In this document: piece by piece, positions 4,047 through 19,660 of the stretch
Position numbering within the stretch: the stretch's first letter is position 1
Layout: each line of letters starts with the position of its first letter
IMG/VR virus record: IMGVR_UViG_2698536570_000009
Span: 1-42,963 of that record
Length of the DNA stretch: 42,963 nt
Source of the DNA: a virus
Lineage: Duplodnaviria; Heunggongvirae; Uroviricota; Caudoviricetes
Strand: one strand, 5' to 3'
Notes under the pieces: model-generated
Seen by the model: the letters and a program-made list of their open reading frames with translations, nothing else
Database searches by the model: none
What the model was told of the DNA's origin: nothing
Translations under genes and position numbers: made by a program

Positions 4047-4659
4047 ATTTCCTCTCCTTTCGGCAGTTGGCTCTTGGCGGGATGCTAATCCCTCTATTGT
4101 TGTAGCCATGACACCATTTGTGGATGGTTGCTGATTTCACGCCAAAATGATTCGCCGCGGCTCCGGCGCTTTCAAAACGCAACCCATCAACAAACCAGTA
4201 AAACGATGTACTTCTGTTTTCCGCCTGCTTGGTAACCGTTGCCCATCTGCAATTGTCTTTTGAATACGGGCCTTCATTGTTCTTCCGATCTAGCTGATGC
4301 TTAGGCGTAGGAGGTGGCCCCATATCTTCAAGAAATAGCTCGAACGTCAGCCATCTTTCGCAGATACCGCGCTTACTGTATTTTTCGAAGTCTTTGTTGT
4401 TCGGGTTCGTGCAGCGGTTTTTCATTCCGCTCCAAATCCTGTAAACGCGGGTATTTCGCTGGCCGTGAGTGGCGTTTTTTCCTGCCATGCATCCGCAGCT
4501 GCTTATTGAACTGTTTTTAAGCTGATTTGCGGCTCTATAGCAGGAATTACCGCACACACAAAGGCATAGATACATCCTTCTACCTCTCAGCATGTGCGAG
4601 CATTCTTTGACGGTTAAGTGCCCATATTTTTCACCGGGCATAAGTGGATTGGCGTTCAT
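4039..4659 (-). CDS. HNH-like (homing-endonuclease-type) protein inserted between the recombinase and exo
   Basis: 206 aa; Cys/His-rich; block '[42 protein letters not shown]' resembles a block I recall from phage free-standing HNH endonucleases (family not verified). Start overlaps the recombinase stop (ATGA); ends 2 nt before exo start. Confidence 0.55.
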
Positions 4660-5573
4660 GCTGCCGCCTTTTGCCTGAGGAACCCGAGAGCCTTAACACC
4701 TTCCATTTCTGTCAGGTCGGCTGGCTGCGAGATAGGGCGTTTGAAAATGCGTGAACAGAGAGGGAGAAGATCGGCATCCCATGTCTTATCCAAAGAGACA
4801 AGGAGGTCGTTTATCTCTTTCTGCGTGGCTTCGCTAAGCGGCGTTATATCGCGCTCAGGCTGACGCTCTGCTGTAAAGTTGATACCTTCTTCGCCCTCGG
4901 TGTTAACGTGGTCTATGGCGGCGTCCAGGCGCTCACGGCGAGGCCAGTATTTTGCTGCCTGCTTCACGACCGTCTTGAGGATCATCTGCTCTTCATCGGT
5001 GACCCATGGACACTTCTTGCTATTGTCGGATTTGTACTTCTTCCACGCTTCTGAGCGGTCACGGATGGAGTAGATGGCATCGATGCGCATCGTATGGGTG
5101 AGGTAATCACCATCGTCAGTTTTTACCGTTACATACGCGCCTACGATGTCCCCGCGCTGCTCTTCAGTATCGAAGTCGTTGTAGATGTGGATTGGCGGCT
5201 TATCGAGCCCCTCGCGGCGGAACTGGTCGTTTCTTCGAACAATAGCCGACTGGCACCACTTAATGGCGCCAGACTGCTGCGCGATGTGCATCAGGCCCAT
5301 GTAACTGATGTCTAGGCAAATAGCCCCTTTACGCGGAACCAGGTAAGCCAGCTTCTGAGCTGGGTTTAGCGAAATACCGATAGCCGCAACGTTGATGATT
5401 GCGTTCTGTGTGCTGGTCTGGTTCTGGAAAGCGACTTTCGCGAGGTAGTCGTTGTTCTGAAATAGTTGGATGGCAAACTGGCTTTCCTTCGCCCACACCA
5501 TCCGCTCGTCTGTGGCCGCCTTCATGAAAAGCGGCTCCTGTTGTTTGACGAAATCAACAAGGGTTAAGCTCAT
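4656..5573 (-). CDS. single-strand annealing recombinase, RecT-like core with lambda Bet-like C-terminal tail
   Basis: N-terminal 230 aa show RecT-like blocks ('[10 protein letters not shown]', '[16 protein letters not shown]', '[24 protein letters not shown]'); C-terminal about 70 aa ('[12 protein letters not shown]...LDKTWD.DLLPLCS.IF...VKALGFL.QKAA') closely match the recalled C-terminus of lambda Bet. SD 'GGAGGGG' upstream. Confidence 0.85.
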
Positions 5574-12336: not shown

Positions 12337-13034
12337 AAAATAATACACAGCCAGCACTGAAAGAACGAATCGAAAAGGCACTTGAAGACTTCACCAAAGG
12401 CCGCGCCAGCATGCATGTTCCTCCGCTTGATACCGATGTTGATGTGGTGCTGGCGGAATGCAGTGACCGATTATCAGAGCTTAAAGCCAGATGCGCGGCG
12501 CTGGCTGCGGAGAGTGCGATGTTGAAGCAACGGACACAGCAACTTATCGACATCATTAGCAATACTGACAATAACTACTGCATGTGTGGTTCTGCTATGA
12601 AAAACCACGTGCACGGCGGATGTGGTTATCCTACTGGCATGTTCGATTATTACTACAACCAGTGGCTGGAGTCAGATAACAAAACCCCAGCCACCGATGC
12701 TTTTCTGGCTGAAGTGCGGGCGCAGGGTGTGACCGAATACTCCAGTAAGCGAGGGTTCTCATTCCAGCACGGAAGTATCCATGCACACTTCGGTACCGGC
12801 GATGTGATGGTGGGTTCGGTGACATTCGAAAACGGTGATGCCGGAATTAACTTCGCTCCAGTTCGCGAGAAAACTGGCGGCGTTGGCACTCATTACGAAT
12901 GGACTAAAGGCAAAACAGCGGAACAGGTCGATTCAGTTTTTGTCATTGCCAGCAGTAACGCCGAAGGCCTTGAAGTTATCCGAGACAAGCTATCAGAGGC
13001 TATCGCCCAGCTTCGCAAAGGAGTGCAGTCATGA
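12333..13034 (+). CDS. hypothetical nin-region protein (233 aa): N-terminal coiled coil plus Cys/His/Gly-rich C-terminal domain
   Basis: ATGA overlap with the upstream stop; motif 'CMCGSAMKNHVHGGCGYP' suggests metal binding; no family recognised. Confidence 0.5.
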   Translation: MKNNTQPALKERIEKALEDFTKGRASMHVPPLDTDVDVVLAECSDRLSELKARCAALAAESAMLKQRTQQLIDIISNTDNNYCMCGSAMKNHVHGGCGYPTGMFDYYYNQWLESDNKTPATDAFLAEVRAQGVTEYSSKRGFSFQHGSIHAHFGTGDVMVGSVTFENGDAGINFAPVREKTGGVGTHYEWTKGKTAEQVDSVFVIASSNAEGLEVIRDKLSEAIAQLRKGVQS

Positions 13035-14591: not shown

Positions 14592-14641
14592 NNNNNNNNN
14601 NNNNNNNNNNNNNNNNNNNNNNNNNNNNNNNNNNNNNNNNN
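14592..14641. other. assembly gap (50 N)
   Basis: Run of exactly 50 'n' characters in the sequence. Confidence 0.97.
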
Positions 14642-15919: not shown

Positions 15920-16089
15920 TGGCTAGCCCTCTCGCTCGCATCATCACCAACGAAATCTACCGGGTCCGGACACGCACTAAGCGAAAGCCTGAACTCAAGC
16001 CATCCGAAATCCCATCACTGCTCGGCTACACCGCGCGACTGACCCAGGTGAAATGGGATCGCCTGAAAGCGCGGAGGTCACATGGCTAA
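15919..16089 (+). CDS. small basic hypothetical protein (56 aa)
   Basis: Hand-translated ORF (below track cutoff) filling the gap between NinB and the next gene; start overlaps the NinB stop. Confidence 0.3.
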   Translation: MASPLARIITNEIYRVRTRTKRKPELKPSEIPSLLGYTARLTQVKWDRLKARRSHG

Positions 16090-16372
16090 TTTATGCAAAG
16101 CGGCACGCGGCCGCGATTGTCAGGTGCGGATCCCCGGCGTATGCAACGGCAATCCTGAAACCTCAGTACTGGCTCACATACGTCTTGCTGGTCTATGCGG
16201 GACCGGAATCAAGCCGCCTGACCTGATCGCCACCATCGCATGCAGCAGTTGCCACGACGAGATTGATCGCCGCACCCGTCTGGTCGATGCGGAATTTGCA
16301 AAGGAGTGCGCGCTGGAAGGCATGGCTCGCACGCAGGTCATCTGGCTTAAAGAGGGGCTCGTGAAAGCATGA
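16082..16372 (+). CDS. Cys-rich zinc-binding nin-region protein (DUF1364-like)
   Basis: 96 aa with multiple Cys pairs ('[17 protein letters not shown]', '[11 protein letters not shown]'). Confidence 0.6.
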
Positions 16373-16731
16373 ATGAATACCGCATTAGCCTCCCGTGGCC
16401 GCCGAGCAACAACCGCTACTACCGGCATAACCGCGGGCGCACGCACATCAGCACAGAGGGGCAGGCGTACCGCGACAGTGTCGCCAGAATCATCAAAGAC
16501 TCAATGCTGGATATCGGCCTGGCTACACCCGTGAAAATCCGCATTGAGTGCCACATGCCGGATCGCCGTCGCCGTGACCTGGATAATCTGCAAAAGGCCG
16601 CTTTTGACGCACTCACCAAAGCAGGTTTCTGGCTGGACGATGCTCAGGTCGTTGATTATCGCGTTGTGAAGATGCCCGTTAACAAAGGTGGAAAGCTGGA
16701 ACTGACAATCACCGGGCTGGAGGCCGTATGA
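16369..16731 (+). CDS. rusA: RusA Holliday-junction resolvase
   Basis: Near-identical to recalled RusA sequence ('[21 protein letters not shown]', '[46 protein letters not shown]'). Confidence 0.9.
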
Positions 16732-16864
16732 CATTTGAATCCTGTTTTTCCGATCACCTCCGCGTTCGCTGGCAGCGGCTTCGCTTATACCACTTTCCCG
16801 GCTCTGTGCTAACGGACTACCGGATACTGAAGAATTACGTGAAAACTTATGCTGGAGAAGCGCT

Positions 16865-17959
16865 ATGAACCTTGAAAACACAGTGAAATACCACTTCGCT
16901 AAATCCACACTGATTAGCGATTCTCCGCGCGCTACCGCCTCCGATTCACTGACCGGTACCGACATAATGGCTGCCATGGGCATGACGCAGGAACGCGCCG
17001 CAATGGGTTACAGCGCCTTCCTCGGCAAGATGGGCATAAGCAATAACGACCGGGATCGGGCGATCGGTCTGCTGGCTGAGTACGCGATGACAAAATGCGA
17101 CAAGGTTGCCGCACTGCGTAAGCTCGGTGCCGCGGTTAAACCTCAGGTGATGCACCAGTTGGCCACCTTCGCTTTTGAGGACTATTCCCGCAGCGCTGCC
17201 AGCGTGAAGCAGTGCGATTGTTGTGACGGTCAGGGGGTCAGGACCTGTATTGCTTCTCTGGAGCTTAAACCAGGCAAAATGCTTGCCCGACTCACGCGGC
17301 AAACCATCTGCACCTCCTCACCGAAGCGTGAAGAAATCATTATGACCAACGAATGGTTTTCTGACCGCCTTTGGGTATTCAAACTTACCGGAACGGCCAA
17401 AGCAGACCGGCTTCTTGAGATTTTTGCCTATGCCCGGCGTCGCTATGGCATTGAGCTGTTCGTCATAGATAACCTGGCTAAATGTGGTTTAGACGAAGAA
17501 GACTACACAGGTCAGAAAGACTTCATCGATACCCTTTGCGACTTCAAGAACGAACATAACTGTCACGTCCTGCTGGTTACCCATGCCAGAAAAACAAACG
17601 ACTCCGCTCCAACCGGAAAGATGGACGTAAAAGGCACCGGTGCTTTAACGGATATGCCCGACAACGTGATGGCCGTCTGGCGCAACATTCCCCGTGAGCT
17701 GGCGCAGAGAAAAGCGGACCGTATGGGTTATGAGAGCCTCGACAAAGACGAACAGGCCGCAATCAATCTTCCTGCCTCAATGATTCGCTTGTTGAAGCAA
17801 CGAGAGGGCGAAGGGTGGATCGGTGACATCGGAGCTAATTTCGACTCTCGCTCTCACCAGTTCCTGGAAGGCGAGAAAAAACCATTTAACTACCTGGTCG
17901 GTAAGCCGCAAAGCGAGTTTGATCTCGAGTGGGAAGCCAGCAACGTAACGAGGGTTTGA
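16865..17959 (+). CDS. chimeric ORF: lambda-Q-like N-terminal region (about aa 1-135) fused in frame to the C-terminal half of a DnaB-like RecA-fold helicase (Walker B present, no Walker A)
   Basis: N-terminus 'KYHFAKSTLISDSPRATASDSLTGTDIMAAMGM...ATFAFEDYSRSAA...CDCCDGQG' parallels recalled lambda Q; C-terminal 'LFVIDNLAKCG...HVLLVTHARKT...DVKGTGALTDMPDNVMAVWRN' parallels DnaB motifs ('LIVIDYLQL', 'DLRESGSIEQDADLIMFIYR'). An intact, different Q allele follows immediately. Confidence 0.6.
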   Translation: MNLENTVKYHFAKSTLISDSPRATASDSLTGTDIMAAMGMTQERAAMGYSAFLGKMGISNNDRDRAIGLLAEYAMTKCDKVAALRKLGAAVKPQVMHQLATFAFEDYSRSAASVKQCDCCDGQGVRTCIASLELKPGKMLARLTRQTICTSSPKREEIIMTNEWFSDRLWVFKLTGTAKADRLLEIFAYARRRYGIELFVIDNLAKCGLDEEDYTGQKDFIDTLCDFKNEHNCHVLLVTHARKTNDSAPTGKMDVKGTGALTDMPDNVMAVWRNIPRELAQRKADRMGYESLDKDEQAAINLPASMIRLLKQREGEGWIGDIGANFDSRSHQFLEGEKKPFNYLVGKPQSEFDLEWEASNVTRV

Positions 17960-17962
17960 GAT

Positions 17963-18799
17963 ATGAAACTTGAAGCTTCACTAAAACACTTTAGCCCTCA
18001 GGGTATGCACATCAGCGACGACGTGAAAGGAACCTCTCCGGACCGCCTTACAGGAACAGATGTAATGGCGGCAATTGGCACCACCAGCAGCCGTGCGCGC
18101 TTCGGACTGGCGGCGTTCTTCGGTAAAGCGGGAATCAGCAAAACGGATGAACAGCTCGCAGTTCAGGAGCTGGCGCGATATGCGATGGATGTCGCACCGA
18201 AGAATGTTCGCAAAGCAGCTGGTGGGCAGTTCGGATGGTGCATGCAGATGTTGGCACAATTTGCCTTTGCTGATTATTCACGTTCGGCGGCTACAAGCGT
18301 GACGTGTCACAGCTGCAGTGGTACCGGACGAACAACCCGCGAACAGATTACCCGCAAGGTTTCGTACCCATGGGGTAAAGCTCCATACTGGGCCTGCCGC
18401 TCTCGTGCTGTTCGACCGTCTGACTGGGAGCAGTGGATGGAGGTAACAGAGGTTGTACCGGCGGTCTGTGATGCTTGCGAAGGCAAGGGAACGATCAGCG
18501 CCCGTTGTCGTTGCGGCGGTAAAGGCGAGGTTCTAGACCGCAAGGCCACAAGCGAGCGCGGCGCGCCGGTGTTTAAAACCTGCGAGCGCTGCAGCGGAAA
18601 TGGATTTTCTGCGGTGCCGTCTACCGCAGCCTATAAAGTGATACTGAAGCGCGTTCCGGATCTGCACGTCAGAACATGGACTCGCAACTGGAAACCGTTT
18701 CTTGAGGCGCTGGTAAGCATTTGTCAGCAGGAGGAGGGAAACGCTGCAAGAGAATTTCAATCTGCAACCAGTTTAGGCGAAGAAGGTGACGAAATTTAG
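17963..18799 (+). CDS. late antiterminator Q (intact, 278 aa, extended zinc-finger region)
   Basis: Q-family blocks ('LTGTDVMAAIG', 'AQFAFADYSRSAA', Cys clusters 'CHSCSGTG', 'CDACEGKG', 'CRCGGKG', 'CERCSGNG'); followed by the candidate pR'/tR' unit. Confidence 0.85.
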   Translation: MKLEASLKHFSPQGMHISDDVKGTSPDRLTGTDVMAAIGTTSSRARFGLAAFFGKAGISKTDEQLAVQELARYAMDVAPKNVRKAAGGQFGWCMQMLAQFAFADYSRSAATSVTCHSCSGTGRTTREQITRKVSYPWGKAPYWACRSRAVRPSDWEQWMEVTEVVPAVCDACEGKGTISARCRCGGKGEVLDRKATSERGAPVFKTCERCSGNGFSAVPSTAAYKVILKRVPDLHVRTWTRNWKPFLEALVSICQQEEGNAAREFQSATSLGEEGDEI

Positions 18800-18818
18800 C
18801 ATTATTACGACATAAGGC

Positions 18819-18848
18819 TTGATTTTGTCCGAAGTTGTCGTGTATGCT
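18819..18848 (+). promoter_or_regulatory. candidate late promoter pR' (-35 TTGATT, 18-nt spacer, -10 TATGCT)
   Basis: Sigma70-like hexamers directly downstream of Q and about 40 nt upstream of a terminator, as for lambdoid pR'/tR'. Confidence 0.35.
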
Positions 18849-18889
18849 TCTAATCATGCGGAGTAACGCCTGAAAGATTTCAACAATAA

Positions 18890-18909
18890 GCCCCTTGCGG
18901 GGCTTTTTT
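18890..18909. terminator. rho-independent terminator (tR'-like; also terminates the convergent minus-strand moron)
   Basis: GCCCC-TTGC-GGGGC hairpin followed by T6; an A-rich tract precedes it. Confidence 0.6.
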
Positions 18910-19321
18910 ATGGCAGCGAGTTAACGAAAGAACTGAAAAGGGCCTTATCTTTATTGCTAATTGATTTTTTCAAATGTAGTTGATGATTTAAAGGTTTAAA
19001 GTTTTCCTTTGTGAGATATATACATGCTTTCTCAAAACGATCCTGAAGGAATTGAAATCTTTCATTCAGCCTGGAAACTTTTAATCCTAATGACATGACC
19101 TTCTTCTCAGGAATATCGTCAGGATTGCAATTATTGAGTTCTTCCAGCACAAGGCGAATATCTCTTTCGAAGATTAGCGCTATGTTATAATCGTTGAGGA
19201 GGCATTCAGGATTACGAACAATGCCAATTACTTCGTCGATGAATTGTGGTTTTACATTATCCTCAGCATTTTCATCTTCGTTATCGGAAGGTTTTTGAGA
19301 CATAACATTCGACAACTGCAT
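18908..19321 (-). CDS. hypothetical moron protein in an AT-rich island, convergent with Q (137 aa from the SD-supported start; ORF-track version extends to 19528)
   Basis: AT-rich coding region; SD 'AGGAAG' 4-5 nt upstream of the ATG at 19319-19321; the longer 19528 start lacks an SD and overlaps the tRNA-like gene; acidic N-terminus, no family recognised. Confidence 0.45.
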   Translation of the reverse strand: MQLSNVMSQKPSDNEDENAEDNVKPQFIDEVIGIVRNPECLLNDYNIALIFERDIRLVLEELNNCNPDDIPEKKVMSLGLKVSRLNERFQFLQDRFEKACIYLTKENFKPLNHQLHLKKSISNKDKALFSSFVNSLP

Positions 19322-19506
19322 TTCTTCCTTGGTTTTCCTTCTGGGAAGTAAAACTTTTCCATCTCCTAAAGCAGCCATACGTTTCAAAGCTTGACTCCCG
19401 GCTCGGCCAACTACTATCGCAGGCTGAGAGGTCTGTAAAATGCAATCCCGAAACAGTTCGCAGGTAATAGTTAGAGCCTGCATAACGGTTTCGGGATTTT
19501 TTATTT

Positions 19507-19581
19507 GGGTCAGTCGTATAAAGGTCATTACGGAAGGCTGTTAACCTTCTTATCGTGGTTCGAGTCCACGCTGTCCCGCCA
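19507..19581 (+). tRNA. tRNA-like gene, Asn(GUU)-like anticodon arm, non-canonical 5' half (possible pseudo-tRNA)
   Basis: 3' half is canonical (T-arm CGTGG-TTCGAGT-CCACG, acceptor plus GCCA); anticodon stem-loop GAAGG-CUGUUAA-CCTTC; acceptor stem has one T-T mismatch and the D-stem is weak. Confidence 0.45.
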
Positions 19582-19584
19582 AAT

Positions 19585-19660
19585 TCGCCTGTAGCTCAGA
19601 GGAAAGAGCAACCGCCTTCTAAGCGGTTGGTCGCTGGTTCGAATCCAGCCAGACGAGCCA
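19585..19660 (+). tRNA. tRNA-Arg (anticodon UCU)
   Basis: Cloverleaf: D-arm GCTC-AGAGGAAA-GAGC, anticodon arm ACCGC-CTTCTAA-GCGGT, T-arm GCTGG-TTCGAAT-CCAGC, 3' CCA; one C-A mismatch in the acceptor stem. Confidence 0.7.

Follow-up and report, generated by a model that had tools for sequence, protein, structure and literature searches.

Is a long open reading frame (ORF) that runs from the start of an antiterminator into the end of a helicase a new phage gene, or is it the trace of a recombination event? The question is raised by an ORF of 364 codons in IMGVR_UViG_2698536570_000009, a Caudoviricetes record of 42,963 nucleotides (nt) that was analysed over its whole length (hereafter the window) and that is a prophage in the chromosome of Escherichia coli AW1.7, adjoining the csc sucrose genes. 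An earlier note on this DNA described an in-frame fusion of a Q-type N-terminus to a helicase fragment, with RusA before it and an intact Q behind it, and this is what the ORF analysis and the Pfam matches return. We refer to the Q gene from which the fragment derives as Q1 and to the intact downstream gene as Q2. We conclude that the ORF is very probably a by-product of the exchange of a Q/late-promoter cassette between temperate phages and has no function of its own.

16865-17959, + strand: chimeric ORF, Q1 N-terminal fragment joined to a helicase C-terminal fragment; ATG start, 364 codons open throughout.

The domain matches divide the ORF into two parts. Pfam places Antiterm (PF03589) at residues 23-111 with an E value of 1.8e-19 and AAA_25 (PF13481) at residues 123-246 with an E value of 6.2e-08, the latter covering profile positions 71-195 of 195. 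As the AAA_25 match begins only at profile position 71, the part that holds the P-loop is missing from the chimera. In PHROGs, the Q-like family phrog_127 is found at residues 1-126 (126 of 253 profile positions) and the DNA primase/helicase family phrog_239 at residues 96-339. The RefSeq annotation pipeline (PGAP) does not call a gene of 364 residues at all; it annotates two incomplete pseudogenes, labelled 'antitermination protein, incomplete, missing C-terminus' and 'AAA family ATPase, incomplete, missing N-terminus'.

Each part of the ORF has a nearly identical parent of its own. The two segments and the point at which they meet are as follows.

16865-17235, + strand: Q1-derived segment, codons 1-124; 100 % identical to an intact Q of 260 residues and equivalent to lambda Q residues 1-125.
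17229-17959, + strand: helicase-derived segment, the last 242 or so codons of a 623-residue Toprim primase/superfamily 4 (SF4) helicase, established by comparison with SaltyDalty and the contig L015 and by structure matches to Twinkle and T7 gp4.
17229-17235, no strand: crossover point, exact microhomology GTCAGGG (7 nt), from a base-by-base comparison with both parents.
17213-17235, no strand: imperfect patch of similarity between the parents, most of about 24 nt matching with a 1-nt indel; the flanks are unrelated.

On the left, positions 16865-17235 are the first 371 nt of intact genes for the 260-residue Q, at 100 % identity, in no fewer than six E. coli genomes, AR_0119 among them, with abrupt divergence afterwards. 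Phage mEp237, in which the order is RusA-YlcG-Q, matches window positions 16700-17235 (the 3' end of rusA, ylcG and the 5' part of Q) at 95.5 %. On the right, the DNA is 99.6 % identical to the Logan metagenome contig L015 and 96.5 % identical to phage SaltyDalty, and the encoded protein corresponds to residues 382-623 of SaltyDalty gp32 with one difference beyond the junction codon. The right parent has a primase/helicase gene followed by Q, as in SaltyDalty and many IMG/VR and metagenome loci, and this adjacency is native: it is found in SaltyDalty, Pantoea L008, Enterobacter L006 and the E. coli strains MS 115-1, EC2001 and G3/10. SaltyDalty shares with the window only this helicase-Q module. 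With a parent identified for each side, the suggestion stands that the locus is a scar of illegitimate recombination or module exchange, in which two Q alleles were brought together with a replication gene of another phage. The donor gene itself differs from what had been expected, namely a stand-alone helicase of the P22 gp12 type; it encodes instead a bifunctional Toprim plus SF4 primase-helicase resembling T7 gp4 and Twinkle, of which about 240 residues, rather than 220, are left.

The base-by-base comparison shows that the left parent is identical through 17235 and that the right parent matches from 17229. The crossover falls in codons 122-124 of the chimera and about codons 381-383 of the helicase gene, that is, 35-100 nt to the left of the junction first proposed (about 17270-17330, residue 135). 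GTCAGGG has the same codon phase in both parent genes (GGT CAG GGG versus AGT CAG GGG) and the fusion is in frame for this reason. Extended homology between the parents is absent at the breakpoint, which offers 7 exact nt within the imperfect patch of about 24 nt; at a random blunt joint, a microhomology of at least 7 nt has a probability of about 3.8e-4. The similarity of helicase-bearing relatives starts inside the patch: in 68 relatives it begins at 17213 or 17214 and never further left, and in five relatives it ends exactly at 19415. The joint can be recognised by residues 118-130 of the chimera, KQCDCCDGQGVRTCIASLE, or at the DNA level by the 41-mer CGATTGTTGTGACGGTCAGGGGGTCAGGACCTGTATTGCTT.

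Two proteins in the databases are broken close to this point or in the same gene. The P0033 primase-helicase has an in-frame internal deletion of Toprim and Walker A that stops on its right at …AM|SG…, two codons away from the AW1.7 crossover, and in P0107 the N-terminus of a replication protein O is fused to the helicase domain. The GCGATTGATGCGATGAGTCAGGG stretch may be prone to breakage. Both were left out of the counts of in-frame joints given below, examples from protein databases being biased to in-frame cases.

How widespread is the joint? A full-length helicase is present in 124 of the 139 related viral and metagenome loci that encode the helicase, and three of them (L029, L060 and L110) are collinear with window positions 17214-19415 at 97.7-98 %. 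The AW1.7 joint occurs in none of the 139 loci and in 2 of 5,426 complete E. coli genomes, both of which are assemblies of strain AW1.7. Similar prophages can yield chimeric joins in assemblies, and one could on that general ground suspect an assembly or sequencing artefact bridging two prophages, nothing specific pointing to it here. The two AW1.7 assemblies (CP073624 and CP072539) are independent and complete and are 100 % identical across the ORF and its flanks, and the 7 nt shared by the parents are far too few to mislead an assembler. We regard an artefact as scarcely credible.

An open reading frame of this length might also mark a conserved natural Q family with a C-terminal ATPase extension, and the open frame itself is what speaks for this explanation. 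A search of 5.8 billion proteins returned no full-length homologue of the 364-residue protein. The best matches cover at most 69 % of the ORF; the top one is the AW1.7 GenBank gene call, which uses an internal start, and the others are all primase/helicases. The C-terminal half matched primase/helicases and no extension of Q. The two outcomes that the earlier note had named as refuting its interpretation were thus both looked for, and neither was obtained. The Q family members that we found have 207-278 residues and no ATPase domain, and the C-terminal part of the chimera is the end of a 623-residue primase/helicase from which it differs by one residue beyond the junction codon. The comparison with the SaltyDalty protein and the protein search together refute a conserved Q-ATPase family, to which we assign practically no probability.

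The next question is what the two fragments could still do. Chimera residues 1-124 share 50 % identity with lambda Q residues 1-125 and also align with PDB 7UBM. The earlier note ranked this N-terminus above Q2 in similarity to lambda Q; the direction of the difference is right and its size is marginal (50.0 % versus 46.7 % over the equivalent N-terminal 124 or so residues). In lambda Q, residues 1-60 are intrinsically disordered and constitute the torus-forming segment that contacts the flap-tip helix, residues 1-44 forming the torus only in the NusA-containing loaded complex; residues 61-113 and 153-207 make up the body, the latter stretch containing a helix-turn-helix (HTH) from H4-H5, and residues 114-152 make up a zinc-ribbon arm whose tip contacts sigma region 4 (PMC9388147). 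The chimera keeps the equivalent of lambda Q 1-60 with the conserved motif SDSPRATASDSLTGTD(I/V)MAAMGM. Overall, the Q1 piece retains the disordered N-terminus, two of the four body helices and one CxxC knuckle. It has no equivalent of lambda Q residues 126-207 or thereabouts, which comprise the second zinc knuckle, the arm tip, the HTH (H4-H5) and the C-terminal helix. The first CxxCxGxG (CDCCDGQG) precedes the joint and the sequence beyond is helicase-derived, leaving only one of two cysteine pairs. The complete zinc ribbon and the complete four-helix body with its HTH are accordingly both lacking, Q homology ending at residue 124. Since the HTH, the arm tip and the C-terminal helix are missing, the Q piece is not expected to fold as Q or to bind a Q-binding element (QBE). 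The QBE and pR' of the Q1 parent are lost as well, the joint being followed by helicase coding DNA: a cognate late promoter and QBE had been suggested as something to look for downstream of the Q fragment, and no promoter-like site is present on the + strand within 16865-17959.

The helicase piece is similarly incomplete. What remains of the helicase domain, from about residue 123 to residue 364, is its C-terminal two-thirds, which can be aligned to the chains of Twinkle and T7 gp4. Of the SF4 helicase motifs, Walker B and those that follow it (H2-H4) are kept and identical to the parent, with ELFVIDN at residues 197-203, LLVTHARK at residues 236-243 and a KGTG...WR region. Walker A, correctly noted before as absent, is GVNGHGKT in the parent, where it ends 13 residues before the break. 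In a full-length relative (Toprim_2 plus AAA_25/DnaB_C) Toprim_2 lies at residues 206-293; it is absent from the chimera, as is the linker. Going by the RecA-type core of T7 gp4, the piece would also be without the first core strand and the linker that hexamer formation requires. Lacking features that define Q proteins as well as features that define SF4 primase-helicases, the chimera belongs to neither family.

The losses bear directly on the idea that the 364-residue protein is made at induction and functions in trans. It could do so through its Q segment, at the RNA-exit channel of RNA polymerase (RNAP) or on NusA, modulating late transcription, or through its helicase piece, poisoning the hexamers of superinfecting donor-type phages. 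The intact ORF with the translation start of the parent would be consistent with such a role, as would the nature of the residues kept, which include the counterpart of the torus-forming part of lambda Q, with its contact to the flap-tip helix, and the Walker B region with the downstream SF4 motifs. The torus, however, folds only in the NusA-containing complex of QBE-loaded Q, and the fragment is without the HTH and the intact zinc ribbon needed for loading. The helicase piece has no P-loop and, going by T7 gp4, would have neither the first core strand nor the linker for hexamers. The protein is also a singleton of one strain, its architecture being absent from the 5.8 billion proteins, the other E. 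coli genomes among the 5,426 and the 139 related loci. There is no divergence from which selection could be read. Helicase remnants that have likewise lost their 5' part turn up repeatedly at other mosaic joints, where they decay. A dominant regulator or decoy built on a tethered Q-derived DNA/RNAP-binding domain, as the earlier note had envisaged, is not supported, given the missing HTH, arm tip, half zinc ribbon and P-loop and the pseudogene calls by PGAP; we consider activity in trans very unlikely. The product should be inert, because its Q piece lacks the HTH and half of the zinc ribbon and its helicase piece lacks Toprim, linker and P-loop.

We looked at the age of the joint through the substitutions on either side of it. 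The Q1 piece differs from its parent by 0 substitutions. Outside the junction codon the helicase piece differs from L015 at 2 of 729 nt, one change being synonymous and one non-synonymous, and it is identical to the copy in E. coli FAM21845 over the 250 nt they share. With 0 and 2 substitutions, the recombination event appears to be recent; there is no sign of purifying selection, and the changes are too few to say more. Compared with SaltyDalty, 24 codons of the helicase piece differ synonymously and 2 non-synonymously, one of these being the junction codon. We reject this excess as a sign of selection on the fragment: it reflects divergence between functional helicase genes.

The joint within the ORF is one end of a longer imported segment, the features of which are listed here from left to right together with the genes that precede the ORF.

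16369-16731, + strand: rusA, nin region of the left parent; Pfam RusA with an E value of 1.4e-21, also called by PGAP; nin similarity to AR_0119 and mEp237 spans 16066-17235.
16728-16868, + strand: small ORF of the ylcG family; it shares an ATGA stop/start overlap with the chimeric ORF, and the parent phages have the same overlap.
17963-18799, + strand: Q2, intact Q-family antiterminator of 278 residues; Pfam Antiterm with an E value of 2.3e-53, phrog_127 positions 1-252 of 253.
18819-18848, + strand: candidate late promoter TTGATT-18 nt-TATGCT; read by eye, weak and below the scan threshold.
18888-18905 (stem) with a T-run, unit to 18912, + strand: strong intrinsic terminator, from a terminator scan.
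18908-19528, - strand: gene whose 5' end is truncated by the right-hand joint; phrog_7003 positions 124-308 of 309.
19415-19416, no strand: right-hand joint, blunt, 0-1 nt of microhomology; FAM21845 matches on one side and SRY149 on the other.

Q2 presumably acts as the functional late regulator; its start codon follows the helicase stop after 4 nt, as in donor phages, and has a GAGG Shine-Dalgarno sequence of its own about 9 nt upstream. The protein is 87.5 % identical to the Q of SaltyDalty and can be aligned end to end with lambda Q apart from an insertion of about 70 residues; the DNA is 99.9 % identical in five other E. coli genomes. Q2 and the Q1 parent (L004 6001-6783) belong to a longer Q subgroup of 260-278 residues, compared with 207 for lambda Q, in which the insertion of about 70 residues consists of extra CxxCxGxG knuckles. 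This knuckle insertion gives a weak score against the central cysteine-rich domain of DnaJ.

The candidate promoter and the terminator between 18819 and 18912 may form a pR'/tR'-like unit that travels with Q2. The reverse-strand gene of phrog_7003, whose function is unassigned, is full length (316 residues) in FAM21845. Right of 19416 lies the tRNA-Asn leader region that is also found downstream of Q in lambdoid prophages such as SRY149. Judged by sequence comparison, positions 17229-19415 make up an imported cassette of 2.19 kb with the helicase 3' remnant, Q2, the promoter/terminator region and the truncated reverse gene. Between Q2 and a lambda-family holin, beyond the cassette joint, the prophage carries tRNA-Asn(GTT) at 19507-19581 and tRNA-Arg(TCT) at 19585-19660.

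We propose the following course of events. The ancestor would have been a lambdoid prophage with the order ybcO-rusA-ylcG-Q1-pR'-tRNAs-lysis, which would have gained the 2.19-kb segment (17229-19415) with its helicase, Q2, promoter/terminator and reverse gene from a SaltyDalty-type phage. The left crossover would have been illegitimate, occurring through the GTCAGGG microhomology and joining the two frames, and the right crossover would have been blunt and would have cut the reverse gene. The cassette would have displaced pR' and the 3' part of Q1, and the hybrid would keep the early and nin genes of the left parent and rely on Q2 and its cognate site. Why a piece of helicase should be part of the import can be understood from the constraints on such a swap: Q must move with its cognate site, and crossovers before the Q2 start that spare essential early genes are viable, so the helicase piece is carried along. 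The prophage has genes for a replication protein and a DnaC-like ATPase of its own (PGAP) and thus does not need the imported helicase. PGAP also annotates RecT and a lambda-type exonuclease in this prophage. The 364-residue product is probably made while the early rightward operon is on, since the ribosome-binding site of the parent and the overlap with ylcG at the start codon are kept. A literature search for data on induction or proteomics of the AW1.7 prophage found nothing relevant. The only plausible role that we can see for the ORF would be a passive one, in which ribosomes go on translating until only 4 nt separate them from the Q2 start, as on the intact helicase gene of the donor.

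The same Q2 is preceded by a second scar of independent origin. E. coli FAM21845, MB06232 and LR536430 and the metagenome contig L155 all have Q2 at 99.9 % identity behind a different fusion.

L016 (FAM21845) 4647-4997 and L155 1258-1614: second scar, the first 33 codons of a spanin-like ORF joined in frame to the last 83 helicase codons.

The breakpoint of this scar is equivalent to window position 17710, and its spanin-like ORF follows a GH19 endolysin. The FAM21845-type prophage has two antiterminator-type genes and two lysis cassettes in tandem. Other 5'-truncated helicase remnants are found in L014, L044 and L152. The copy in L014 (8001-9668, Logan ERR028259) has 407 residues and is followed 4 nt later by an antiterminator of 146 residues that belongs to a different family, PF06530; which type of Q adjoins the 3' end of the helicase varies from phage to phage. 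In L152 (3636-4358, metagenome Ga0256409_1000390) a single open frame leads from the N-terminus of a protein similar to N6-adenine methyltransferases into what is left of a decayed helicase (57 % identity) and ends there at a premature stop; it probably represents a third scar of this type, and an older one. That helicase remnants recur at mosaic joints fits the proposed origin of the AW1.7 ORF as a scar.

One refinement of the scar model is that the ORF serves as a leader for Q2, in-frame fusions having been kept for translational coupling or as a protection against Rho-dependent polarity. The spacing of 4 nt between the helicase stop and the Q2 ATG, here and in donor phages, would suit such a role, and both independent joints before this Q2 allele (AW1.7 on the one hand, FAM21845, MB06232, LR536430 and L155 on the other) are in frame with a translated 5' gene start. 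Past the AW1.7 joint the two other frames would stop after 10 or 35 codons, leaving more than 600 nt untranslated before Q2. The events, however, number only two, one of which came to notice because it is in frame; chance alone would give the pattern with a probability of about 0.33 if only the unbiased event is counted and of 0.11 if both are. Among independent helicase remnants as a whole, 2 of 2 clean joints are in frame and one (L152) is decayed, a sample far too small for a statement on enrichment. Q2 has a Shine-Dalgarno sequence of its own, N-type antitermination normally renders lambdoid early transcripts resistant to terminators, and the third remnant has decayed. We therefore view a selected leader function as possible and rather unlikely.

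Some of the same observations weigh against an ORF without any function. All 364 codons are open and the fusion is in frame, for which the chance is 1 in 3 at a locus that was picked for being in frame, and the FAM21845-type joint before the same Q2 is also in frame, a possible hint that uninterrupted translation was selected for. A weak effect in trans may come from the conserved N-terminal Q peptide, which corresponds to the torus-forming lambda Q residues 1-44. As to the course of events, the two joints may date from a single step or from separate ones, and transfer may have taken place in either direction. On balance we maintain that the ORF is very probably a functionless by-product of the cassette swap. 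The features expected of a recombination joint are all present, namely two one-sided and nearly identical parents, microhomology as the only similarity at the crossover and restriction to one lineage.

A few further observations concern the rest of the prophage. The early region contains an HNH endonuclease pseudogene with a missing C-terminus (PGAP) at about 12411-12731 (L003 15485-15805). Window positions 14592-14641, inside a DUF551 gene, are a run of 50 N in place of 112 AW1.7 bases, and coordinates to the left of the run are offset by 62 relative to the AW1.7 genome. The late region (21501-42963) encodes a lambda-like terminase, portal, protease, decoration protein and capsid, followed by a contractile-tail sheath, tube and baseplate. 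A parent of the whole genome was sought with this late half (21.5-43 kb) among 50,697 phage records; the search gave a single weak match, a Serratia phage capsid gene at 79 %.

The locus is a clean case of temperate phages swapping a regulator together with its target site, in which both parents are identified and both joints are mapped to the base. One of the joints has a microhomology and the other is blunt, which makes the case relevant to the old question of short-homology versus illegitimate recombination in phage mosaics. It also illustrates that a long chimeric prophage ORF can be a scar of recent date and not a new gene, supports the existing pseudogene annotation and cautions against over-reading domain fusions in prophages. 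Were activity in trans real after all, the locus would hold a regulatory or defence protein born de novo from a recombination scar.

How does the AW1.7 ORF compare with known systems? Its Q part resembles lambda Q (PF03589; structures 4MO1 and 7UBJ-7UBN) over residues 1-125, including the first CxxCxGxG, and differs from it in having no counterpart of the remainder and no downstream promoter/QBE. Its C-terminal part, from residue 123 or so to 364, resembles primase-helicases of the T7 gp4/Twinkle type (phrog_239) and lacks their N-terminal region, Toprim, linker and Walker A. The FAM21845-type scar shares the Q2 cassette and an in-frame, 5'-truncated helicase remnant; it differs in the unrelated gene start upstream, a spanin-like partner, in the number of helicase codons, which is only 83, and in the full-length reverse gene to the right of Q2. 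Novel joints in mosaic lambdoid and other temperate phages are the closest parallel: they have in common with the AW1.7 joint an abrupt switch of parent, few bases of homology at the crossover and the exchange of a functional unit, here Q with its target region. Whether such joints arise by illegitimate recombination or by 'relaxed homologous recombination' through Rad52-like recombinases is debated (PMC3945230; PMC9836094). In the regions assayed in PMC3945230 the longest perfectly identical stretches measured 11 to 298 bp, and the 7-nt microhomology at AW1.7 is far shorter. The left joint at AW1.7 is also set apart by interrupting two coding sequences instead of falling between genes and by being, as it happens, in frame, which gives a long chimeric ORF. 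In all, the AW1.7 ORF is a well-resolved instance of the known mosaicism of lambdoid phages and an ordinary product of it.

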